Shown here: positions 6,694 through 58,142 of the stretch, piece after piece
Position numbering within the stretch: position 1 is the stretch's first letter
Layout: each line of letters starts with the position of its first letter
Assembly (NCBI GenBank): GCA_012646185.1
Contig: GCA_012646185.1_4706.1
DNA length: 64,000 nucleotides
Strand: one strand, 5' to 3'
Origin: a phage
Program-made: the position numbers and the translations under genes
The notes under the pieces: generated by a model
Seen by the model: the letters and a program-made list of their open reading frames with translations, nothing else
Told to the model about the DNA's origin: nothing
Databases searched by the model: none

Positions 6694-6956
6694 TATTGAA
6701 TTCCTTTTGATAAGAATAACTGAATATCGGTAAACTGTTCTTCAGGAACATCGTCAGCAGCCGTTAGAACCTTAGAGCCATGTTCATTGAGGTAAGCTTC
6801 CCGTAGACAACGATGACGTCGATTGGCTTCCTGGAACTCAGTGTCCGTCATGTAAACCAGCGTAAACTTCGAACGTTTATTCGGATTGTATCTCTTATTA
6901 CGTTTCTTTGGTTTCTTCGCCATAATAGCCTCGTGAAGGTGGATGGGCACACCCAT
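6693..6956 (-). CDS. small basic protein (start uncertain)
   Basis: 87-aa ORF; lysine/arginine-rich N-terminus MAKKPKKRNKRYNPNKR. Confidence 0.3.
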   Translation of the reverse strand: MGVPIHLHEAIMAKKPKKRNKRYNPNKRSKFTLVYMTDTEFQEANRRHRCLREAYLNEHGSKVLTAADDVPEEQFTDIQLFLSKGIQ

Positions 6957-6986
6957 CCACCTTCCTCCATGTTAAAGTGCGTTCAT

Positions 6987-33498: not shown

Positions 33499-34335
33499 TT
33501 AACGTGTTCTCCTATCACGATGCGTATACGACTGAAGACCGATGTCCATATGCGGTAACGTCAGCGTCTGCCAGATCTGTCGTGCGTAGCGATCGAGCGT
33601 ATGATCGTCAGTAACACAATCGACGGGTTCGATGAGGTGGGTCGTATACTGGCTTTTCTCGGAGAAAGGTTCGAGGTTAGCTGTATCGCCTAATCCGCTT
33701 TTCACTGTGAAGACAAGACGTGTGACTATCATCGCTTTATGTTGCTGTTCATTATAACGAAGGCTGCGGTATACGGCATAGCTCCCTCCTTTTAGGCTTC
33801 GGGTATAACGAAGGTCGGAGGTCGTCTCGGAAATCTGATACAGCATCCAGTCCAACGTATCACGCCAGTACGCATCATCCACATCAGGAACCGTGATACC
33901 GTATCGCGTAGGCAGCAATTCTAAAAGCAATTTATAAAGTCCGCGACGCAGACCATGCTCTTCTGTTTCCGATAAACCGTTTCCAACGTAACGTGAAATA
34001 CGTGTACGTAAATACGTACGGATGAACATATTCGCCATCAAGGTCTTCACTCTGCTACTGGTATCCTCAAAGCGATCAACGCTGAAACTCGTTTCAATCA
34101 GTCGTCCATTAAAATACAATGCGGCAACATACATCGCGTTATTACTATCACGTTCAATGTTTAAACGTCCGCAGATATTGGCTGCGTCGTTCATGGTGAA
34201 TTCTAATTTATCGTGTTCGATACGATAGATAATATCCTCTTGGGTTGCCAGGCTCGCAATGCGACGGTAGCCCGGAGAAGTACGTTTTACACTCATGATT
34301 GTCCTCGTTTTCAATTTTAAGATTGCATGCGGCAT
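33499..34335 (-). CDS. hypothetical protein
   Basis: 278-aa ORF. Confidence 0.5.
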   Translation of the reverse strand: MPHAILKLKTRTIMSVKRTSPGYRRIASLATQEDIIYRIEHDKLEFTMNDAANICGRLNIERDSNNAMYVAALYFNGRLIETSFSVDRFEDTSSRVKTLMANMFIRTYLRTRISRYVGNGLSETEEHGLRRGLYKLLLELLPTRYGITVPDVDDAYWRDTLDWMLYQISETTSDLRYTRSLKGGSYAVYRSLRYNEQQHKAMIVTRLVFTVKSGLGDTANLEPFSEKSQYTTHLIEPVDCVTDDHTLDRYARQIWQTLTLPHMDIGLQSYTHRDRRTR

Positions 34336-34378
34336 AAACCCTCCCCGCCTTATGCAGGGAGGGCAGCCATTAAATGGA

Positions 34379-35017
34379 TTAACCTAATTTACCACCGGCA
34401 ATGTTGGTGAAATCTTCGCCATCAGGAACTTGCAGTAGGATACGTGCCATGTCCCAGTTGGTTAATGTAATTGCTTTATCATCGATACTCAGTTCTGGTA
34501 GGTCGAGTTCATGATCATCAAACTCGTAGGAAATACTCCACGTTTCATCTGTTTTAGGATCGGTTATCAACACACCGTCTGTTACACGCATGTAGTCCGG
34601 ATGCAATTCATTACTGAATGTGCTGAACGGATCGGTGTAACATTCAGCATACCCCTCGATCTGCTGACGTTGCGCCTTCGTACGTAATTCAGGGCACGCC
34701 ATAATCAGTTGTCGAGATATGCCGTTTGCAGCACGGAAGTCTTCCACGGTGTTGCATGGCATAACCACATCGTCATGGAAGATGTTCTCCGATTGTCTCA
34801 ACAGCGTCTTACGGAGTTCAGCATAGTTTATCTGATTGAATGCGTCGAACGTTGCTAACGATTCAGCGTAAAAATGCTTTACGTGTTCGCTTGCACTGCC
34901 GAGGCTATTCATCAGCTTGTGGCCGTACTCCATAAAGCTTTTATCGAGACCGGAGGACATTTCTCCGAACCTCAGTGCACGATAACTGTCTCGTCCACCT
35001 GTAAATATTTGCGCCAT
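34379..35017 (-). CDS. hypothetical protein
   Basis: 212-aa ORF directly downstream of the beta-prime exons. Confidence 0.5.
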   Translation of the reverse strand: MAQIFTGGRDSYRALRFGEMSSGLDKSFMEYGHKLMNSLGSASEHVKHFYAESLATFDAFNQINYAELRKTLLRQSENIFHDDVVMPCNTVEDFRAANGISRQLIMACPELRTKAQRQQIEGYAECYTDPFSTFSNELHPDYMRVTDGVLITDPKTDETWSISYEFDDHELDLPELSIDDKAITLTNWDMARILLQVPDGEDFTNIAGGKLG

Positions 35018-35032
35018 TACAGGCGTCCTCCT

Positions 35033-35257
35033 TTAGCAATGGTTGTTAGTTGCTTCTATTTCATCAAGATACGGTTCTACGTCATCGCCCTCCACGAATT
35101 CGTTGAACCAACAGTCAATGGTAGAAATAACCGGTGACTGGTGTTCACATTTCTTAGATACCTTAAAAGGCACGTTATTATCCATCATACCGAGTTCGGG
35201 TCGAAAACGCCCGAAATGTTTCGCAGTCCAAATGTCTGGGACGATATGGTTGTTCAT
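35033..35257 (-). CDS. RNA polymerase beta-prime N-terminal subunit, exon 3 (proposed)
   Basis: Encodes MNNHIVPD...GMMDNN, matching the beta-prime sequence that follows NADFDGD (MAVHVP / MNLHVP, then LMMSTNN); exact 5' boundary uncertain. Confidence 0.5.
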   Translation of the reverse strand: MNNHIVPDIWTAKHFGRFRPELGMMDNNVPFKVSKKCEHQSPVISTIDCWFNEFVEGDDVEPYLDEIEATNNHC

Positions 35258-35617
35258 CAAAATCTTCAGTATGAATCGCTACTTCATACCCGCAGCATTA
35301 CCTGCAGCTCCTGGTGTTACCAGGATGTTGAGAGTATATCATGCCCATATTCCAAATGGAACGTAGGACTTCCGCGCTGGATCTCGCTTGAGACCACTTA
35401 CTCGTTGAACGTTCTCCTAAACGGAGCTTCGCTGCTGATTGGACATTGTTACGTACGGTAGGCGTCCCATTAAAGGGATTTTCATTGAAGCCGCGTACAT
35501 CCGTTACCTTGTTTCTACCTTATCGGTTCCTCTTACGAGGCGTAACGGCTTTAGCCTATTCCAGCAATTCACGGAATGCATATTCTCCTTTTCAGGAGAT
35601 AAGGCCATGGCTCTGGC
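35258..35617 (-). ncRNA. putative self-splicing intron 1 (ORF-less, group I-like), boundaries approximate
   Basis: About 360-nt hairpin-rich sequence between DFDGD codons and resumption of beta-prime homology; tandem relative of intron 2. Confidence 0.5.
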
Positions 35618-35632
35618 ATCACCGTCAAAGTC
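35618..35632 (-). CDS. RNA polymerase beta-prime micro-exon encoding DFDGD (proposed)
   Basis: Minus-strand codons GAC TTT GAC GGT GAT; flanked by the two intron copies; exon 1 ends ...GYNA. Confidence 0.5.
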
Positions 35633-35982
35633 CACATATCTTCAGTATGAATCGCTACTTCATACCCGCAGCATTACCTGCAGCTCCTGGTGTTACCAGG
35701 ACGGAGAGATCATCTCATCACCCACGAAGGGTGTTCCGCGCTACCCTCAGCGAATTCGAGGGACATGATCGTTGAACCTTCCACCGATAATCGGTGGCTA
35801 GGCTGCTGATTAAACATTGTACGTTGGGGTGGCATCCTGGTTCAGGACTGTCGTTGAAGCCTCCCAACATCCACTCACTTATTTCCGCCTTATCGGCTCC
35901 CATAAGGGCAGAGTGGCTTTAGCCCGTCTCAGCAATTCACGGAATTCAAGCTCTTCCTTTCAGAAGGCAGGGCCTCATCTGA
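35633..35982 (-). ncRNA. putative self-splicing intron 2 (ORF-less, group I-like), boundaries approximate
   Basis: Follows the codon for Ala of ...KGYNA (exon ends in U); RNA ends in G just before GAC of DFDGD; track ORF reads 17 codons into it then stops. Confidence 0.5.
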
Positions 35983-37233
35983 AGCATTGTATCCCTTAAG
36001 GATCATCACGCTTAACCCGATGGTGTTATCCTGCGGATCGCGTTTAACCTTGGTGATTTCAAGACATTGGTTACTGCTTCGGTCAAGTGATGGGTTTCGA
36101 ACAAAGCCGCACACAATCCCATCGAACGGCGTATCAGCAATAAGCTCATCGTGCAGCTCGCTCATCATCGGATGATAATTACGGACATGTTCCGCAACGA
36201 ACGCACGCGCTGCTCTCGGTGAGTAACCACGATGGAATAACTTGGATTGGATATGTTCTTTATTGGTTAAAGTAAATGGTGCGTATGGGAAATGCAGATG
36301 ATAATAACGATGGTTCGCTGTTATCGAACTGATTACGGTACGCGTGGTGAATGGATGTAATGTACCTAATATGTTTTTACGTGTAATACCTTTCTTCTTA
36401 CCGATGAACTCATCGAAAATCGCTGCGTGGTATTGCAGTAGCTTCAATTGCACTTTCGCCATCCAGTTTTCTTTCTTTCTGGCGCTCAAAGGTGTTGTTG
36501 GATGATAGATACTGTTCAACGTACCAATAGCATCGATCGCACCTTCCATTTTGCTATCCGCATAACGACCGGTCGGCGTATTTTCGATAACGAACATCAT
36601 GGCTGCAGGAAAGCTGATATACTGACTGAAGAACTTATCACGATGGATACGGATGAATTCTCGTAGCGTGTCAACTTTCTCCATGTTCTTCGGTCCACGT
36701 AACGTCGGTCCTTTATACAAGATCTCCATGATGCGATCGAAGTTCTGTATAAAGCTATTTACGCCACGCCGTATCCCGAATACATCGAATTGCTGCTCCA
36801 GATAGTTCTTGAGTTCGATGGGTCGTTTTACATTTGGACGGTAACTGGCATCAATGAGCCACGTCATCGTTTCAAAGCTTTTGATATTCAACTCGCTTGC
36901 CAGCACGAGATGGACCAACGGGTTAATGAACGCATCGATTCCTTCAGGAACGCGCGCCCAAACCGTCGAACGAATCTCTTGTTCTGCTGGGTAGGTTACA
37001 ACCGTTTTACAGTTTGGACACACCGTGCCGAGTAGCTCACCACGATTGTAGAAACCACAACCACATTGTGGTGTGATATCCAACGTATCGCTGGAGTAAA
37101 CACGGGTGATAAAACTGTTTAATTTCTTCTTCTCTTCGACGACTTTTGTATCGTAATCATTCAACAAAATCGGCGTGAAAGGAAGTTCTGCGAGCTGTCT
37201 ATCGAAACTCACGATATCGAGCATGATGGCCAT
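35983..37233 (-). CDS. RNA polymerase beta-prime N-terminal subunit, exon 1
   Basis: Zn-finger CGCGFYNRGELLGTVCPNCKTVV (compare CxCGKY...C..CGVEV); NPSLDRSS (compare NRQPSLHK / NRAPTLHR); IGLSVMILKGYNA (compare LNLSVTSPYNA) immediately before the missing DFDGD. Confidence 0.65.
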
Positions 37234-37275
37234 GGGGTATCTCCTACAAATGAAAAAGAACGTTAGGACGTATAA

Positions 37276-37299
37276 GGGAGGGAGGTTGCCCTCCCTCCC
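37276..37299 (-). terminator. GC-rich stem-loop gggagggagg-ttgc-cctccctccc between chimallin candidate and beta-prime gene
   Basis: Perfect 10-bp inverted repeat. Confidence 0.45.
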
Positions 37300-37325
37300 G
37301 TCAGATTACATCGAACGTTCTTCCA

Positions 37326-39221
37326 TTAGAACAGGTTGAATGCCCCACCCATGTTGTTAACGCCAACATTCGGACGATCGCTACGTGCGTAGATGTTACC
37401 GGAGATGTTACCCAGACCACGAGCACGTGCTGCCATGTTACCACGAACAGCGGTACCTGCCAGATGCTGGATGTTCTCAGGACGGATGGTGAAGCCAGCA
37501 TCAGCCGCAGCTTCGATCAGCGCCTGCAGTGCTAACGGATCGAAGTCGTAACGCATTGCCCAGCCGGTTTGTTCCCAGCTACCAGACAGAACACGATCGA
37601 TGATTTCGTGACGAGCGACAACACGCTGAGACATCGTCATATCGGTACGGTCGAAGCTGTCTTCCCAAGCTTCTACGGTATCCGGGTTAGTGATGTTCAT
37701 CATGTACAGATCGTCCATATCACGAATATCGTGACGGTGACCATCCTGGTGGTTGTAGTAACCCAGCGGGATACGGTTACCGGTAGCGTAGACCAGCGGT
37801 TGGCCGTATTGATATTTCTTGCTGAAGCAACCCAGGGTAGTATCATCGAAGGCACGGTAAAGTGCTTTGTAGCCTTCAGAGACTTCCTGAACTTTACCTT
37901 CAACATTACCCGTATAGATCTTCTCAGCCGCCGGGATCATACGCAGCAGCCAGCTGTATTCGCCTTCTTCCGGTACGTCGATAGAAATCAGCAGAGACGG
38001 ATACAGAACCTGTTGCAGGAACTTGTAAATCTGCTCGTTGGTTTGCGTAGACAGATCCAGCGGTGCAGTCACTTCAGGATCCAGCACCATCGCCAGAGCA
38101 CCTGGGTTATGCGGACCAATACCACGAGCCGCGTTGCTGATTAAAGACTGTGCCCATGCCATGCCGCTGTTCAGCGTAGCGATGGTACCAATCAGACCCA
38201 GCACGAAGCTGTTCGGTGTGAACGCATCCAGCTCCAGCGGGTAAGCGCTGGTCATCACGTAACGCGGCTGGTATTGTACAGTCGGCGGTACCGGATAGCC
38301 GTTAACCAGAACAGGGCCTTGGTTGAAGGTCGGGTTCTGCGGGCTGTAGGTCAGGTCGATGTAACCGGTGGTGGCGACCAGACGCTGTTGACTATCGTAA
38401 TCGCTCATCGCTTGACGGATGCGGTTAGAGATAGTTACAGTGATGTCAGAACGCACAGGGTTACCAACAATATCACTGTCCTGCATACCGCTGGTGTTGT
38501 ACTGAACGCTGCTGATTGGCTGATCGCTTGCCATCATGCCCAGGTTGAACTGCGGCAGACCCAGTTTATCACCGAGACGGATTTCGATTGCGGTCTGGAT
38601 TGCGTTATCTGCAGCAGACAGCAGGGTGGTTGCCAGATGCGCAGATTCAGCGGTGATTTCATTGGTCACCACAGCCAGACCAGCGATACGAACAGTACCG
38701 TTAGACTTACCGCCAATAGCTGAATACATTGCCGCCATGACTTCGTTGATGAACGTACCGTTCAGGTTATCAACCCAGGTACGCGGTACCAGAATGTTAC
38801 CATGCGGACCTTGTTCTTCACGACGCGGCAGCGGAGCCAGACCAGCAACCAGCGGCAGGACGTAACCGAAGAAGTGGTTATGATCACCAACTTTTGCACC
38901 GCTCATAACAACCAGGGTCGGATACGGTACGCTGTACTGGTTCGGGTCAACCGCAACAAAGATGAAGTCGTCTTTGAACTGGGTATCTTCCAGATATTTC
39001 TCCATCAGACGACGGAGATTCAGTACCTGCTCGGAGCCGGTATTACGGCTGATACGACGGCTCAGTGTACGGTTGATCGTACGCATCGTATGAGTTACTT
39101 TAGGACGGTCGGCAAAATCTGCAGCGGTTTCCAGCGCCTCATCAGCACGTTGTGCGGTGCGGGTTTCAGCTGCACGAATTTCTACATTATCGTTACCGTT
39201 ATTACGTACGTCTAAGCCCAT
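37326..39221 (-). CDS. chmA: candidate phage-nucleus shell protein (chimallin); alternative is a major virion structural protein
   Basis: 631-aa ORF directly upstream of the beta-prime N-terminal gene (same order as phiKZ gp54-gp55); early-promoter motif 70 nt upstream; extended charged N-terminal tail. Confidence 0.45.
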   Translation of the reverse strand: MGLDVRNNGNDNVEIRAAETRTAQRADEALETAADFADRPKVTHTMRTINRTLSRRISRNTGSEQVLNLRRLMEKYLEDTQFKDDFIFVAVDPNQYSVPYPTLVVMSGAKVGDHNHFFGYVLPLVAGLAPLPRREEQGPHGNILVPRTWVDNLNGTFINEVMAAMYSAIGGKSNGTVRIAGLAVVTNEITAESAHLATTLLSAADNAIQTAIEIRLGDKLGLPQFNLGMMASDQPISSVQYNTSGMQDSDIVGNPVRSDITVTISNRIRQAMSDYDSQQRLVATTGYIDLTYSPQNPTFNQGPVLVNGYPVPPTVQYQPRYVMTSAYPLELDAFTPNSFVLGLIGTIATLNSGMAWAQSLISNAARGIGPHNPGALAMVLDPEVTAPLDLSTQTNEQIYKFLQQVLYPSLLISIDVPEEGEYSWLLRMIPAAEKIYTGNVEGKVQEVSEGYKALYRAFDDTTLGCFSKKYQYGQPLVYATGNRIPLGYYNHQDGHRHDIRDMDDLYMMNITNPDTVEAWEDSFDRTDMTMSQRVVARHEIIDRVLSGSWEQTGWAMRYDFDPLALQALIEAAADAGFTIRPENIQHLAGTAVRGNMAARARGLGNISGNIYARSDRPNVGVNNMGGAFNLF

Positions 39222-39283: not shown

Positions 39284-39311
39284 ATTCACCTAGGTAATAT
39301 AACCCTGAAAT
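39284..39311 (-). promoter_or_regulatory. early-promoter-like motif (minus-strand ATTTCAGGGTTATATTACCTAGGTG)
   Basis: Contains TATATTAC; upstream of 37326-39221; palindrome AATGACGTCATT at 39252-39263 in the leader. Confidence 0.5.
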
Positions 39312-49901: not shown

Positions 49902-50276
49902 TTAAACTCCTTGTCGGATCATCACCAACCGGAGCATGTTGTATTCCAATGTAGCGCTTTCTAATTCGAATTCATATCGATACCAGAAATTCGGCTCTAA
50001 TTGACCTACAACACATTTACGAACATCTGTCTGCACCTTCCTCGACAACACCTGTAACAGTTGTGTTATCTCCGGCTTGAAGTAATGCGCCAAACCTAAC
50101 TGATCAGAATAAAACAGGCCACAATCAAAGATGGCCTGTAAAATAACATATTCAACCATCAGGTGACGCGCATCGGGGTCAGGGAATGGCGAACGTAAAG
50201 CGAGATCTAACACATCGACGATTGGGCCGACATAAATGGCGGCACGGTACTCACGAATAACACTGATGTTATCCAT
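49902..50276 (-). CDS. hypothetical protein
   Basis: 124-aa ORF. Confidence 0.45.
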   Translation of the reverse strand: MDNISVIREYRAAIYVGPIVDVLDLALRSPFPDPDARHLMVEYVILQAIFDCGLFYSDQLGLAHYFKPEITQLLQVLSRKVQTDVRKCVVGQLEPNFWYRYEFELESATLEYNMLRLVMIRQGV

Positions 50277-50289
50277 GATAACCTATTCG

Positions 50290-51114
50290 TTAACTATCGC
50301 TTTCTGACGTATCGACGTAGTTGAAAATACGATCCCGTAAACACTCGTAACGAGGCAACGCGCTAAGAATGATCATCTTCAACTGCATCGCGATCGATAC
50401 ACGTTCTTCATCCGACGCATCGTCTCCCCATTTACCCGGCTTAACCTGAATGGGTTCATGCGGATCCTGCGGGAATATAAAACTTAACAACAGATAATCC
50501 GTACGGAACTCCCACACTTCTCGACCGTCGTTATCGGTTTCCTTACGCAACGTGAAGAGTTGGCGTTCGGTGGTTGGATCCAGCATCAGCGGTCGGCCAC
50601 GAACAATCTCCAGTTTACGTGGGCTGACGAACGTCGTACGTTCAGGAAGGTATTTTTCAACATCATCCGTATCCAACAAGAACAAAATGATGTCGTCAAA
50701 ATACTTCGGTGCGTACGTGTGTATCGGTTCACCGTCGCTATACGAAGAGATCTCCTGGAGTATTGGCGTCTTAGACGAAAAGTTCTGGCACGAACCACGG
50801 GTGATCGGTAAGGTGGTCCATTGATGTTCTGTAGACAATTCGACAGGCACCAACGGATAATCATCGATGAAGACCACGCACGTTGTACTAATGGGTATTC
50901 TTCCATCATTACCCGGTTCAAAAACCAAACGTATCTTACCTGTAATCAACGCCATCTCATCTGGCATTAAATGGCTTGCTGAACGGGCAAGCCTGAAACC
51001 GCTCGCCTGTTTATAAGGTTCGGGTTTATAGCCACGGACAATAAGAGACACATCCGCAAGTTCAACGCTCACAAATGCATCTTTGGTGTCTTCATTGTTC
51101 GTCGTTAACGTCAT
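50290..51114 (-). CDS. hypothetical protein
   Basis: 274-aa ORF. Confidence 0.5.
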   Translation of the reverse strand: MTLTTNNEDTKDAFVSVELADVSLIVRGYKPEPYKQASGFRLARSASHLMPDEMALITGKIRLVFEPGNDGRIPISTTCVVFIDDYPLVPVELSTEHQWTTLPITRGSCQNFSSKTPILQEISSYSDGEPIHTYAPKYFDDIILFLLDTDDVEKYLPERTTFVSPRKLEIVRGRPLMLDPTTERQLFTLRKETDNDGREVWEFRTDYLLLSFIFPQDPHEPIQVKPGKWGDDASDEERVSIAMQLKMIILSALPRYECLRDRIFNYVDTSESDS

Positions 51115-52129
51115 TGTTCATTTTCTCCATTGCAACAAATCGTTCAAGCTCGCGTAATAAACGCTCTTTTAACGCAGTATCAACTTCCGGAGCATGTTTA
51201 TCACGATACCATTCTGTCCCGTTGTATTGCAGGCTAACATGCCATGTTCCTAACGGGCTTTCCTCTGCAGCGGCGATGAAATTCTTAACGCCGGTTTTGG
51301 TAGGATACTCCATGATAGGAACAGCCTGCTTCAGATCCATCACGGTAAGATCCTGGAAGTTATAATCCAGAAGCGTTAATGCACGTTTGTCGCGTAGCAG
51401 TAACCCGCAATCCAAGATGGTGAAATCAATACCCCAGAAACGTAACTTACCTCCAACCCCAACAGGAGTATGGCCACGATAAACTGCAAGATAAATCTCA
51501 CCTTTATCGGTTTCTTTGTTGTATCCAGCAATAAAAGCGGCTGTGATTAATGGTTGGTGTCCTTTCGCTAAGAAGACAGGGTGGTTATGATACAACCAGT
51601 CACTACGAATCAGATCGGTAACCTGACCTAAACGTGCGGTTGGTACCATCACCGATCCCAGAGTTTCATCAACAGGAACCTGGTAATATTCAAACAGAAC
51701 ACCATCGATTTCTTCGGTAGCGTAAGGTGTACGTGTGGGATCGTTAAGGAGTTTACGGAGTTTTGTGTTGATTTCATTAACACGACTATCCTGTTCTTTC
51801 TCACGGCTACCGATAACAAAAGCAACAAGATTGCGTACGCTAACAAAAACATCATCTTTCTCGGTGTCGCTGAGATCAGCTTCATCCGGCATTGTTGTCC
51901 AATGTAACGGACCTTCAACGACCTTAAGCCATTTATCTTCGCGTTCAGGATAAACAAAAGGCTTATGCACAGGAACACTGGTATGCTGAACACGTAATAA
52001 CAGATTGCATAACGACGGTAATGTTTTCTCTAGAGGAGGGACAATACCTGAGGTAACGGAAATAACATAGCGGTTAAGAACAAGAGAAGCTGAATAAGTA
52101 ATGTTATCTAATCCTGGTAATTGATCCAT
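51092..52129 (-). CDS. hypothetical protein
   Basis: 345-aa ORF. Confidence 0.5.
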   Translation of the reverse strand: MDQLPGLDNITYSASLVLNRYVISVTSGIVPPLEKTLPSLCNLLLRVQHTSVPVHKPFVYPEREDKWLKVVEGPLHWTTMPDEADLSDTEKDDVFVSVRNLVAFVIGSREKEQDSRVNEINTKLRKLLNDPTRTPYATEEIDGVLFEYYQVPVDETLGSVMVPTARLGQVTDLIRSDWLYHNHPVFLAKGHQPLITAAFIAGYNKETDKGEIYLAVYRGHTPVGVGGKLRFWGIDFTILDCGLLLRDKRALTLLDYNFQDLTVMDLKQAVPIMEYPTKTGVKNFIAAAEESPLGTWHVSLQYNGTEWYRDKHAPEVDTALKERLLRELERFVAMEKMNNDVNDEQ

Positions 52130-52384
52130 GATAGGAATCCTTAGTATGTTTGATATGTTGTTTAATTGACATATTAAGTTTAAAAGAGGTTATGTTTTAC
52201 GTATTGTTAATAACGTATTCTTATCTCTATTAAGTTATGTTCTATCTAAAGATAGTAAACAGATATAATGCTCCCCACCTCCCCATTCTCCCAAGTAATA
52301 CTGGCCTACCGGCCCTCTCCTTTTTAAGGGAGAGAGTAAGCATTCAGTATTGCTCAAATGAATAAGCAAAACAGTATAAACTTA

Positions 52385-52408
52385 CCGTCTCGAGTTATCT
52401 CGAGACGG
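52385..52408 (-). terminator. perfect 10-bp stem-loop ccgtctcgag-ttat-ctcgagacgg
   Basis: Downstream of gene 52438-52791. Confidence 0.5.
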
Positions 52409-52437
52409 CGTAGTAGTATCTGTTTATCTCTTTTATG

Positions 52438-52791
52438 CTAACAGCCTATTTCTGCATGAACCTTTAACGATTCGAATACATCTTGCTTCTTTGTCATCGT
52501 CTTGTATAAACGTGATTGAGCAATGATCTTTATCCATTGTTGTGGATCGCGTAAATTCACATTTTCAAAACGGGGTGGGGTATTAGCTCCGTCGAGTCGG
52601 ATATACCCTAAGAGCAATCCTTCATGGTCTCCTCGACGGATTTCGATATGCGGTTTGAGGAAGACACGATTGTCTGGTGGATACCAGCTTACGGTGTAGT
52701 AATGGTTTCCTGAAACAACGAATTCGTGAACGGTTTTTGTCTCATCGTCAATGACCGCATTTACGTTGGGAATCATTAATTTTTGAAGCAT
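52438..52791 (-). CDS. hypothetical protein
   Basis: 117-aa ORF. Confidence 0.45.
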   Translation of the reverse strand: MLQKLMIPNVNAVIDDETKTVHEFVVSGNHYYTVSWYPPDNRVFLKPHIEIRRGDHEGLLLGYIRLDGANTPPRFENVNLRDPQQWIKIIAQSRLYKTMTKKQDVFESLKVHAEIGC

Positions 52792-53375
52792 GGGACATAA
52801 ACCTCCATCAACATCGCATAAAGCGCACCAAGCCCGTGTAGGACTTGGTTAGGTGCAAAGGTTGGTGTGTAACATACTTGTTCGGTTGGTGTTTGTTGAC
52901 GTAAGTCTAACGGATCCCCGTTGATAAGCATCTGCAGGAGATCAGCATCATCTTGCAATGTGTCTTCATCGATATACGCATCAACACAAAGCAGTCGGTG
53001 TAACTGTTCGGGTTTAATTGAAATACCTACAACCATGCAGTTGTTGTAGGTGGCGTTGTCCAGAAAGAAGTGGATGACGCCCGCTTGAGGATCGCCACCG
53101 TAGTGAAGCCAGCGCGTAAAACCAGCCGACATCATCCATAGCGGGTTGTGTTGTAACGCACTGACGACGCGGGTCTCGAAATCCAAACCAAACTTCTGGA
53201 AGATCGCACCCATCTGGAAACGATCTTCATCGAGACGGTAGCGGAATATACAAGCATCCGATCCCGATGAGTTATCATACACCGAAAGATACCCACGATG
53301 GATTTCCACGGTAACATTGTTGTCGTCAAGCGTGGCGCTCGCAACGCCGTTAGAAAAGGTTGGAACAAAGCTCAT
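52776..53375 (-). CDS. hypothetical protein
   Basis: 199-aa ORF. Confidence 0.45.
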   Translation of the reverse strand: MSFVPTFSNGVASATLDDNNVTVEIHRGYLSVYDNSSGSDACIFRYRLDEDRFQMGAIFQKFGLDFETRVVSALQHNPLWMMSAGFTRWLHYGGDPQAGVIHFFLDNATYNNCMVVGISIKPEQLHRLLCVDAYIDEDTLQDDADLLQMLINGDPLDLRQQTPTEQVCYTPTFAPNQVLHGLGALYAMLMEVYVPCFKN

Positions 53376-53923
53376 CTTGTAATCCTTAATTTACCTGAAT
53401 GAATTATCGTTGATGGGTCCACGACGCGACCGTATTTCGCGTTACGTAATACACGATGCCCAAAGAAGTCAGCGGTTTCCAAAACAACCGTGTAACAACC
53501 CAGCTGATGTTGGTGTCCCCAAAACCGTTCAATGGGAATCCAGCAGGGCGACATGCCTTTGTGTCGCCAATCCGTAACACAACCGAATTCAGCAAACTGT
53601 TCAGTAAACCACTCGTCAATGTCGGTATCCGTAAAGAGAAATACGTGGTTTTTAACCAGATAAGCGAACCCAGGATAAAAAAGCTGAGGGTCATCCGGGT
53701 CACGGAGATAAACACGAAGTTTGTCTAGCGTACCCTCGATAACGATCGTATCGGGTAATCCTGGCGGCGTGAACCGAAGTTGGAAGTTATCCTCGTTTGC
53801 CGAGGCGTTAACCAAATACCCCAATTGAAGGGGCCGATGCAATTCGAAAAGGTTGAACGTTAATGCATATTCGATATACTCTAATCCTATATTCATGTCT
53901 GACCTATGTGGTATGGACGGCAT
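53372..53923 (-). CDS. hypothetical protein
   Basis: 183-aa ORF. Confidence 0.45.
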   Translation of the reverse strand: MPSIPHRSDMNIGLEYIEYALTFNLFELHRPLQLGYLVNASANEDNFQLRFTPPGLPDTIVIEGTLDKLRVYLRDPDDPQLFYPGFAYLVKNHVFLFTDTDIDEWFTEQFAEFGCVTDWRHKGMSPCWIPIERFWGHQHQLGCYTVVLETADFFGHRVLRNAKYGRVVDPSTIIHSGKLRITR

Positions 53924-54028
53924 TGCATTGCCTTCCGCGAGTGTAATCAGGAAGGTAATGTAGGTTTATTTTAATCTCCATTTCGCGATGATATGACAGT
54001 CTTTATTACGTTTACCATCTGAGGGAGC

Positions 54029-55273
54029 ATGCTCATGTCTTCTATTTTACAGGTGTTTAATGCGCATGCGGAAGGCATTGACATCGACGAGTATTTTGTT
54101 AATCAGGTTATCCGTTACGCGACACGCTTCCGTACGCAAGACCAAGAACACATGCGTTTTTTCGGTGGGGTTCTGTTAGGTGTACAGAAAATCCGATTCA
54201 CAACAAGACATAACGATACATGGTTTTCCGACGTCTTGATGATGGATGAAGAAAGCTTACGGCGCGATTTGAGTAAACTGCCCTTCTACAATACGCAGAC
54301 CAACCGTGTTGCCTCAAACGCCTTTAACCTAAGTTGCTGTTGGTTGCTTTATGCGATCTTCCACAGCAAACAAATCAAAAAAGAAAAGGTTCGTGAAGCC
54401 GGGATGCTTGCAGCAATGCAAGTCCTCCATTATAAATTCATTTGCGGTCTGGTAGCACGACGTTATCCTTATAACGCCGATCCGGCTATCGCCATTAAAG
54501 CGTACGATGAGTTAACACTCAAATCAGGCATCAAGCGCATGAATAGCTGGAATGAGTACATCGACGAACGCTGTAATGCCATCATTGCGCGTAATAGTAC
54601 ACATTTCAGTCGTTGGTCAACCCTGGAACCTGATAGCGTCGCCGAACGTTTTGTGCGTGATGTGAATACCGGAATCCGTAAGGTTATCAACCGTATCACC
54701 GATACGTACTACGCGATGTACGAAGAAGGTAAGAAGATAGGCACGTCTTCTCAAACTGTAGAGTTAGACGATGGTCTCGCTGTTCGCGATATTAAACGCA
54801 ACGAAACCACTTATCGTCAATATCTGTTCGAAATCGCTTATGACCGAACAAGTTTCGTTAAACGTGAACTCATGGTCGTCATCCTCGACGTGCATCATAC
54901 TACCAATCTTTTATCCCTTGAGCGAGCGTTAAGCTATATCAGCGCTAACGTAGAACGACCGACAAGAGACGGAAAACAGGTCTCTCAGATGTTGCGGCTT
55001 GTAATGGAGCATGCTATCGAGTATATCATCTTGAATAAGGTCGATATGCGCGATCTTACGTTCTTATTCTACATGCGTAACGTGTACACGTCCAACCGTA
55101 CCAGCAACCCGAAACTGTTAGAACTGCGTAAAATTGGCTCTGAAGTCATTAAGAAAGCAACCAATGCGAGAAACGACGCTGAAGCTGCGGCGACACGCAC
55201 CGGTGTCTTTCTGTATATCCTGCTTCGTGTGTTTAGCCGTAACTATTACGTTCGACGTGCGATGTCACGTTAA
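54029..55273 (+). CDS. hypothetical protein
   Basis: 414-aa plus-strand ORF; gagggag before ATG. Confidence 0.5.
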   Translation: MLMSSILQVFNAHAEGIDIDEYFVNQVIRYATRFRTQDQEHMRFFGGVLLGVQKIRFTTRHNDTWFSDVLMMDEESLRRDLSKLPFYNTQTNRVASNAFNLSCCWLLYAIFHSKQIKKEKVREAGMLAAMQVLHYKFICGLVARRYPYNADPAIAIKAYDELTLKSGIKRMNSWNEYIDERCNAIIARNSTHFSRWSTLEPDSVAERFVRDVNTGIRKVINRITDTYYAMYEEGKKIGTSSQTVELDDGLAVRDIKRNETTYRQYLFEIAYDRTSFVKRELMVVILDVHHTTNLLSLERALSYISANVERPTRDGKQVSQMLRLVMEHAIEYIILNKVDMRDLTFLFYMRNVYTSNRTSNPKLLELRKIGSEVIKKATNARNDAEAAATRTGVFLYILLRVFSRNYYVRRAMSR

Positions 55274-55425: not shown

Positions 55426-55454
55426 CCTCCTCTGGGAATGGAACCCAGAGGAGG
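55426..55454. terminator. perfect 11-bp stem-loop cctcctctggg-aatggaa-cccagaggagg between convergent genes
   Basis: Inverted repeat in the 190-nt non-coding region. Confidence 0.5.
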
Positions 55455-58092: not shown

Positions 58093-58142
58093 ATAAACTC
58101 CTCCGATGGAGGGTGCCGGGCACCCTCCATCGTTGTATTACC

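Follow-up and report, generated by a model that had tools for sequence, protein, structure and literature searches.

Among the Chimalliviridae, the phages phiKZ and 201phi2-1 carry short structured RNAs that lie between genes or in 5' untranslated regions and are bounded by terminators, as mapped by ONT-cappable-seq (PMC10914365, PMC11512511). The late promoter of phiKZ is a TATG with its G at +1, the middle motif is AAanTTACc at about -24, and the TATG is necessary but not sufficient (PMC4666361). Intrinsic terminators of chimalliviruses consist of a GC-rich hairpin, usually with a CCCUCC/GGAGGG stem, and a U-rich tail, often followed directly by a TATG start. At the module boundaries of T4-type phages, promoter-stem-loop (PeSL) cassettes are found in multiple copies.

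The locus described here is a gap of 308 nt between two minus-strand ORFs (52130-52437) in a stretch of 64,000 nucleotides of phage DNA, hereafter the window, and it resembles each of these systems in part. Like the RNAs of phiKZ and 201phi2-1 it belongs to the Chimalliviridae and holds, on the gene strand and between a terminator-class hairpin and the downstream gene, a structured non-coding segment in the range of ~70-250 nt; unlike those RNAs, which have mapped 5' and 3' ends, this segment is known from sequence and is limited to Goslar-like phages. The candidate promoter of the gap has a gene-strand TATG, which would give a leader of 41 nt, and, centred ~23 nt upstream, an A-rich ..ACC box; in these features it is like the middle and late promoters of phiKZ (PMC4666361), and the same box family precedes other genes in the window. 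The hairpin shares with chimallivirus terminators a perfect stem 29 nt past a stop codon, a U-rich tail with the UUUAUAC found at other gene ends of the window, and compensatory changes in relatives, but its stem is mixed CG/AT and stands four bases away from the U-rich tail, and one clade has no such hairpin. As with PeSL, we see a conserved regulatory cassette among ORFan genes, beside a gene with mosaic replacement; unlike the multi-copy PeSL cassettes, this element is single-copy. The region is an ordinary terminator-promoter gap to which a conserved, structured and uncharacterised non-coding element has been added.

The locus and its relatives

The window is ~97-99% related to Escherichia phage vB_EcoM_Goslar (MK327938/NC_048170, Goslarvirus), a nucleus-forming jumbo phage, and encodes both PhuZ and chimallin. 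The stretch 50000-54500 aligns to Goslar end to end, and the gap corresponds to Goslar 185807-186114, which is unannotated there. Upstream lies a minus-strand ORF of 117 aa (52438-52791; Goslar_00208, RefSeq gp227) and downstream a minus-strand ORF of 345 aa (51092-52129; Goslar_00207, RefSeq gp228). For a given gene, the GenBank tag number and the RefSeq gp number add up to 435, and the gp207 and gp208 of the Goslar cryo-EM preprint are other genes. Homologues of both flanking proteins occur in Goslar-like phages only, Pfam, PHROG and PADLOC gave no match for six neighbouring genes including the one for the 345-aa protein, and the AlphaFold2 model of the latter (pLDDT 34) is unusable. The literature that we searched contained no transcript map and no transcription start sites for Goslar.

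The sequence-only reading of this DNA had singled out the gap as the longest non-coding stretch of the window, and in a greedy ORF map it is, the runner-up having 285 nt; its placement upstream of gene 51092-52129 was likewise right, with both flanking ORFs on the minus strand. The two hairpins named in that reading are present as well, a perfect 10-bp stem (CCGTCTCGAG/CTCGAGACGG) with a 4-nt loop at 52385-52408 and a ctctcc/ggagag hairpin at 52313-52336. Its description of the gap as AT-rich is correct on average (34.7% GC, the window having 46.0%), but applies in full only to the half 52130-52255, with 24.6% GC; 52256-52437 has 41.8% GC. The gap folds far more strongly than its shuffles on both strands, with z-scores of -6.8 and -6.4 in one run and of -7.2 (minus) and -5.6 (plus) in another, and it is the most extreme among the 12 longest gaps of the window, the next best having a z-score of -4.6.

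The comparison set comprised ~20 Goslar-like genomes and sampled two deep clades. It drew on IMG/VR contigs (L005, L006), on contigs L007-L017, which have genes for variants of the 117-aa protein, on contigs from metagenomes (L034, L035, L045, L049) and on a distant syntenic clade (L070-L076), to which a homologue of the 345-aa protein with 35% identity (P0012, P0013) had led. Scans of metagenome and genome collections with 18-mers returned mostly chance matches, along with five true Goslar-like contigs. From alignments A3 and A5, supplemented by comparing it directly to L070 and L076, the gap appears to be built of four modules, which are, in the order in which they would be read on the minus (gene) strand, hairpin 1, a core, a spacer and a proximal block.

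An apparent excess of conservation in the gap over its flanks at the distance of Goslar (99% against 93.9% around it) did not survive, as the low figure comes from one mosaic gene. In a per-feature profile, identity to Goslar near the gap is 97-100% throughout, except for ORF 51092-52129 at 79%. Since nearby features are as close to Goslar as this, the gap is unremarkable at that distance and more distant genomes are required; judged on these alignments, the conservation argument for the gap is valid only against the distant clades. Within ORF 51092-52129, a divergent block at ~51400-52100 covers the N-terminal two-thirds of the 345-aa ORFan, differs from Goslar by ~25-30% at the nucleotide level and has sharp edges, with flanks that are 98-99% identical. 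Its upstream breakpoint lies ~30 nt inside the ORF, adjoining the conserved gap, and the block looks like an allelic replacement by recombination.

Several observations on the wider neighbourhood stand apart from the gap itself. Some Goslar-like copies of the flanking proteins (P0004, P0007) are filed under Salmonella enterica assemblies of serovars Typhimurium and Newport, one Salmonella-filed copy sitting on a 236-kb contig, which suggests that Goslar-like phages are carried along with Salmonella isolates. Window positions ~33500-38500 (5.0 kb) map to Goslar 166089-172175 (6.1 kb) in two pieces, which span the annotated group I intron and the NUMOD1/HNH endonuclease gene in an RNAP subunit gene of Goslar. 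No group I intron is detected by Rfam in the window, and together with the two-piece mapping this indicates that the window phage appears to be without Goslar's insertion in that gene. At positions 1768-2412, a few genes upstream of the gap, L070 has an additional gene of 214 aa whose DNA-binding domain is of the I-TevI type (a faint NUMOD3 match), a gene that its sibling L076 lacks in an otherwise identical gene order; on this evidence it is a homing-endonuclease-like insertion. The Logan contigs L009, L010 (both at A3 column 277) and L011 (column 152) terminate within the gap, two of them at the same last base. These independent contigs stop 1-2 nt before a SNP that separates L007 from L008, a position that fits assembly bubbles, and their ends are likely assembly-graph bubbles in mixed populations rather than genome ends.

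Terminator-class hairpin and candidate promoter

Hairpin 1 (52385-52408, minus strand) is a perfect 10-bp stem with a 4-nt loop and lies 29 nt past the stop codon of ORF 52438-52791. Perfect hairpins of at least 10 bp occur at 5 loci in the window, against 0.3 expected from shuffles, and all 5 lie 11-29 nt past the stop codons of minus-strand genes, the chimallin gene among them; the others, which are GC-rich, are at 6936-6963, 37276-37299, 55427-55453 and 58105-58131. Hairpins at gene ends often run straight into UUUAUG(C) or UUAUAC, and the next start codon then comes after 20-75 nt. Hairpin and motif together form a recurrent unit, by its sequence a putative terminator plus restart, that could serve to annotate Goslar transcription units.

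Relatives retain hairpin 1 to differing degrees. In L017 and L034 a C-G pair of the stem has changed to T-A, which is compensatory, L012 and L013-16 have weakened inner pairs, and the L007 clade is without the hairpin. The distant L070 and L076 have at the same position, just past the stop codon, a canonical hairpin that is GC-rich and leads into UUCUUAUG, and the two differ there by a compensatory U-A to C-G change. A simple scan and the terminator tool used by the Goslar annotators both make no terminator call on hairpin 1, whose tail UAAGUUUAUACUGUUUU is U-rich but detached from the stem by four bases. Its membership in the class of gene-end hairpins, the compensatory changes in two independent lineages and the canonical terminator of the L070 clade nevertheless make hairpin 1 a terminator-class element, and we infer that it acts on the transcript of the upstream three-gene operon.

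The tail of hairpin 1 (52374-52384, minus strand; UAAGUUUAUAC) holds TATAC, a variant of TATG, and the L070 clade has UUCUUAUGC in its place, with a perfect TATG directly upstream of the core. The tail is thus a possible start site for a transcript over the core. In phiKZ, every substitution in the TATG strongly lowers transcription (PMC4666361), and this intolerance makes TATAC doubtful as a start site.

Two further features of these hairpins were noticed at the DNA level. The 9-mer CCGTCTCGA, part of a hairpin 1 arm, occurs 6 times in the window (10223, 12160, 48880, 52385, 52400(-) and 53230(-)) against 0.62 expected, and 0 of 100 shuffles got to 6. Its four sites outside hairpin 1 all read CCGTCTCGAT, and the sites are kept in Goslar and relatives. 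Separately, three independent flips of a hairpin loop to its exact reverse complement distinguish close relatives, namely ACAA/TTGT and AATC/GATT in hairpin 1 (52395-52398) and TTTA/TAAA in a small hairpin at the other edge of the core (52247-52250); they were seen in L006 against Goslar, L017 against L034, and L017 against the remaining genomes. Such flips point to hairpin- or cruciform-mediated inversion or template switching of the DNA.

At the other end of the gap, the AT-rich spacer (52203-52238, minus strand) is variable. It is poorly conserved, its direct repeats are not kept among relatives, and the genomes L007, L008 and L045 carry a 58-nt insertion in it. The proximal block (52130-52202, minus strand), a candidate promoter and 5' UTR for gene 51092-52129, matches the L007 clade at 76/84 positions, and its TATG and the subsequent.C.A.TTAAACAA are still present in L070. 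This TATG (52173-52170), the sole copy on the gene strand, is conserved in all lineages, and its G would be the +1 of a transcript with a 41-nt UTR, in which a Shine-Dalgarno AAGGA (52142-52138) stands 8 nt before the ATG. The box AAAACATAACC (52198-52188) is centred ~23 nt upstream of that G and has one mismatch to the TTAC core of phiKZ, reading TAACC where the phiKZ middle promoter has TTACC (PMC4666361). Exact copies of AAANNTTACC number 6 in the window, 3 of which fall within the intergenic 6.7% of the sequence, at distances of 18-66 nt before a start on the same strand; two intergenic copies (ACGTAAAATATTACC, CAGTAAAACATTACC) closely resemble the proximal-block ACGTAAAACATAACC. Because the box-to-TATG geometry is that of phiKZ, the motif is enriched between genes and the block is conserved in all lineages, the proximal ~73 nt are, by analogy, a plausible promoter for gene 51092-52129.

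A second promoter type can be proposed from the window itself. The consensus TTTCAcGGyTATATTACyTnnGTGa, with A/T-rich sequence before it, has four copies on the minus strand (10192, 28195, 33473 and 39294), of which two are inside ORFs and the one at 39294 is directly upstream of the chimallin gene. They are candidate early promoters of Goslar, of the kind that the virion RNAP would use. An early promoter in the gap can be discarded, since the extended consensus is missing from it and just TATTACTT is shared, in a GC-rich context.

The conserved non-coding core

Between hairpin 1 and the spacer, the tail of the hairpin included, lies a conserved non-coding core of 146 nt (52239-52384, minus strand). 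Over 52239-52370 it is identical to the L007 clade at 120 of 132 positions (91%), with flanking genes at 75-91%, and in the same comparison neither the spacer nor the sequence that separates hairpin 1 from the stop codon can be aligned. Indels in the core are of 1-2 nt. The core is still partly recognisable in the L070 clade, in which a flanking protein is 35% identical, and that clade also keeps UUUGAG...CUGAA.GC.

Coding does not account for this conservation. The core holds no conserved ORF, the 42-aa (plus) and 33/44-aa (minus) ORFs losing start or frame in the L007, L017 and L070 clades, and a small protein-coding gene is rejected on the same ground, that candidate ORFs are not kept in frame across clades. 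Membership in an Rfam RNA family, tRNA or tmRNA is likewise rejected, with 0 matches at gathering thresholds and a best sub-threshold score of 22.7 bits against 88 required.

On the gene-sense strand, a rod-like hairpin (52282-52366) is predicted alike in three Goslar-type lineages, with four stems, A to D (CUUAUUC/GAAUGGG, UUUGAG/CUUGGG, AAUACUG/CAGUAUU and GCUUAC/GUAGGC), below an apical hairpin. Every Goslar-type variant is compatible with this rod, the share of paired cells being 98% where slid controls give 42-55%; the shuffle control is uninformative. Covariation gives no support, as compensatory pairs number 0 in the Goslar-type rod, and for that reason the covariation test is itself uninformative. 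The sole stem substitutions, two C-to-U changes, form G.U pairs on the sense strand and A.C mismatches on the opposite strand, which is weak evidence on the strand that is read. Folding z-scores of Goslar-type genomes are similar for both strands, and rod stems A to C were not reproduced in L070.

The apical hairpin (52313-52336, minus strand), the ctctcc/ggagag element of the sequence-only reading, is the part of the core in which structure and sequence come apart. With its closing stem GCUUAC/GUAGGC it forms a 38-nt module, of which the ends are identical at 12 of 16 positions between the two deep clades and the middle at only 5 of 22. Since MAFFT column-pair counting across deep clades put the helices out of register, we compared the folds directly. 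Both clades form a two-level hairpin on the sense strand (-16.4 with z -3.2 in the window, -10.5 with z -1.4 in L070), and the antisense strand of the L070 module is unfolded (z +0.5). Variants of the apical hairpin include a loop insertion in L076 and a 1-nt shift in the L007 clade. That a structure is kept while its sequence is not is the best evidence for selection on a hairpin, most simply in sense RNA.

Besides the apical hairpin, the core has two further features. The G-run tract (52271-52295, minus strand; CUUGGGAGAAUGGGGAGGUGGGGAG) follows the pattern CUUGGGA(GA)AUGGG(G)NGG(U/C)GGG(G) across clades; its G runs are retained in all lineages, and the only things to vary are the letters between runs (A/C/U, U/C) and whether a run is GGGG or GGG. 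A small hairpin, CUAUC-UUUA-GAUAG (52242-52255, minus strand), stands at the 3' edge of the core and has an invariant stem in Goslar-type genomes and a loop of TTTA, TTTG or TAAA, the TAAA of L017 being the exact reverse complement of TTTA. We infer that the core may act as RNA.

Several more specific identities were tried for the region and given up. A closed RNA domain of 170 nt would need a long-range 10-bp stem (52256-65/52417-26) that is broken in L017/L034, L049 and the L007 clade; a retron fails on the same broken stem and on a 345-aa protein with no match in Pfam, PHROG or PADLOC. A riboswitch or a leader coupled to the ribosome-binding site is discounted by the absence of an Rfam aptamer match and by the 58-nt insertion and candidate promoter that come between core and ribosome-binding site. 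Masking of the downstream start by the G-run tract was dropped because the cognate gene ranks only 56 of 76 in the window and 5 of 14 in L070, and because the partner is altered in L076 with no change to compensate for it. As a canonical G-quadruplex, the tract has only three runs of three or more Gs and one GG, and G4-aware folding picks none in the window and only a weak two-tier quadruplex in L070. An iteron-type origin falls on unconserved direct repeats, a variable spacer and the absence of a GC-skew inflection, and a MITE or dispersed repeat on the core being single-copy in Goslar, without a second copy in the window and absent from 5,426 E. coli genomes.

A proposed composite control region and competing readings

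If these modules are read together on the minus strand, they would make up a composite intercistronic control region consisting of a terminator, a transcribed core and a proximal promoter, a reading of which we are about half persuaded. Hairpin 1 and its U-rich tail would terminate the upstream three-gene operon. A second transcript would then probably start at or near the tail, at TATAC here and at TATG in the distant clade, or the terminator would be read through, and in this transcript the 146-nt core would be a structured leader or a short non-coding RNA. Selection on the core would bear on the closing stem with its apical hairpin and on the G-run tract. Beyond the AT-rich spacer, which appears dispensable, a phiKZ-type middle/late promoter, with its A-rich ..AACC box ~23 nt upstream of TATG, would yield a short-leader mRNA of the 345-aa ORFan gene with a normal ribosome-binding site. 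A bolder version, which we put forward as a tentative possibility, would make the core a new functional ncRNA of Goslar-like phages that starts at the terminator tail and binds a phage or host factor through the apical hairpin and G-runs, or else a seed for R-loops in replication within the phage nucleus.

On the other hand, the core might work as DNA, as a protein-binding platform (an operator or enhancer of the gp228 promoter), as a replication or R-loop priming element, in which an AT-rich unwinding region would come after a G-rich non-template strand, or as a recombination boundary beside the mosaic gene. We consider a role of this kind rather unlikely, yet it stays a serious rival because covariation in the Goslar-type clade is nil and the loops flip as DNA, which points to extrusion or template switching of these inverted repeats in that form. 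The conservation of sequence without covariation in Goslar-type genomes, the like z-scores of their two strands and the absence of a recognised promoter upstream of their core all speak for a DNA element. A recombination boundary would also agree with the sharp divergent block that starts ~30 nt into the downstream gene, and the over-represented 9-mer of the hairpin arm speaks on the same side. What such a role explains poorly is an apical hairpin kept with a different sequence, of which only the sense strand folds in L070, together with stem substitutions that are wobble-compatible on the sense strand only. Also against it are AT-rich direct repeats that are unconserved, a spacer that tolerates 58 additional nucleotides and a GC skew that does not turn, and the window, Goslar and the E. 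coli genomes hold no second copy of the core.

If the core does act as RNA, it may do so in trans, as an independent sRNA gene whose product would, for example, be a protein sponge, through its GGA/GGGAGG repeats, or pair with C-rich segments of mRNAs. Intergenic sRNAs are produced by phiKZ-like phages, and the core has the look of an autonomous conserved module, with variable spacing to the downstream gene, a G-run tract kept across deep clades and, in the L070 clade, a canonical TATG directly upstream. Against this reading, the core is followed by no convincing terminator, the 64-kb window has no antisense match of at least 11 nt, other genes pair no less well than the cognate start region does, and the partners that give the best duplexes are simply terminator hairpins with their C-rich arms. 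The lack of an Rfam family match counts against it too, and we regard a trans-acting sRNA as distinctly unlikely.

The weakest reading takes the entire gap, after the promoter hub proposed from the sequence alone, for a cluster of several promoters of the late (TATG) type, with incidental hairpins. It starts from five plus-strand TATGs (52145, 52154, 52191, 52236 and 52434) and one on the minus strand, from the TATG core of phiKZ late promoters (PMC4666361) and from the AT-rich proximal half, but is very improbable, in that the plus-strand copies face away from the gene, 52145, 52154 and 52236 are missing in relatives and only 52191, inside the proximal block, is conserved, the plus-strand excess over composition is marginal (P ~0.03-0.04), conservation peaks in the GC-richer structured core rather than in the TATG-rich part, the phage's own early-promoter consensus is missing from the gap, the perfect hairpin is a terminator-class element and not a promoter feature, and the second hairpin belongs to the conserved core, which promoters leave unexplained. 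What stands of the proposal is one plausible promoter for 51092-52129 in the proximal ~73 nt.

If the core proves inert, the region is merely an ordinary terminator-promoter gap. Goslar serves as the nucleus-forming model phage of E. coli, and the locus offers a compact test case for carrying the transcription rules of phiKZ over to it, with a terminator, a candidate middle/late promoter and an early consensus derived from the window. The core is more constrained than the ORFan genes that surround it, and the locus shows regulatory modules being retained while the adjacent gene is swapped by recombination.
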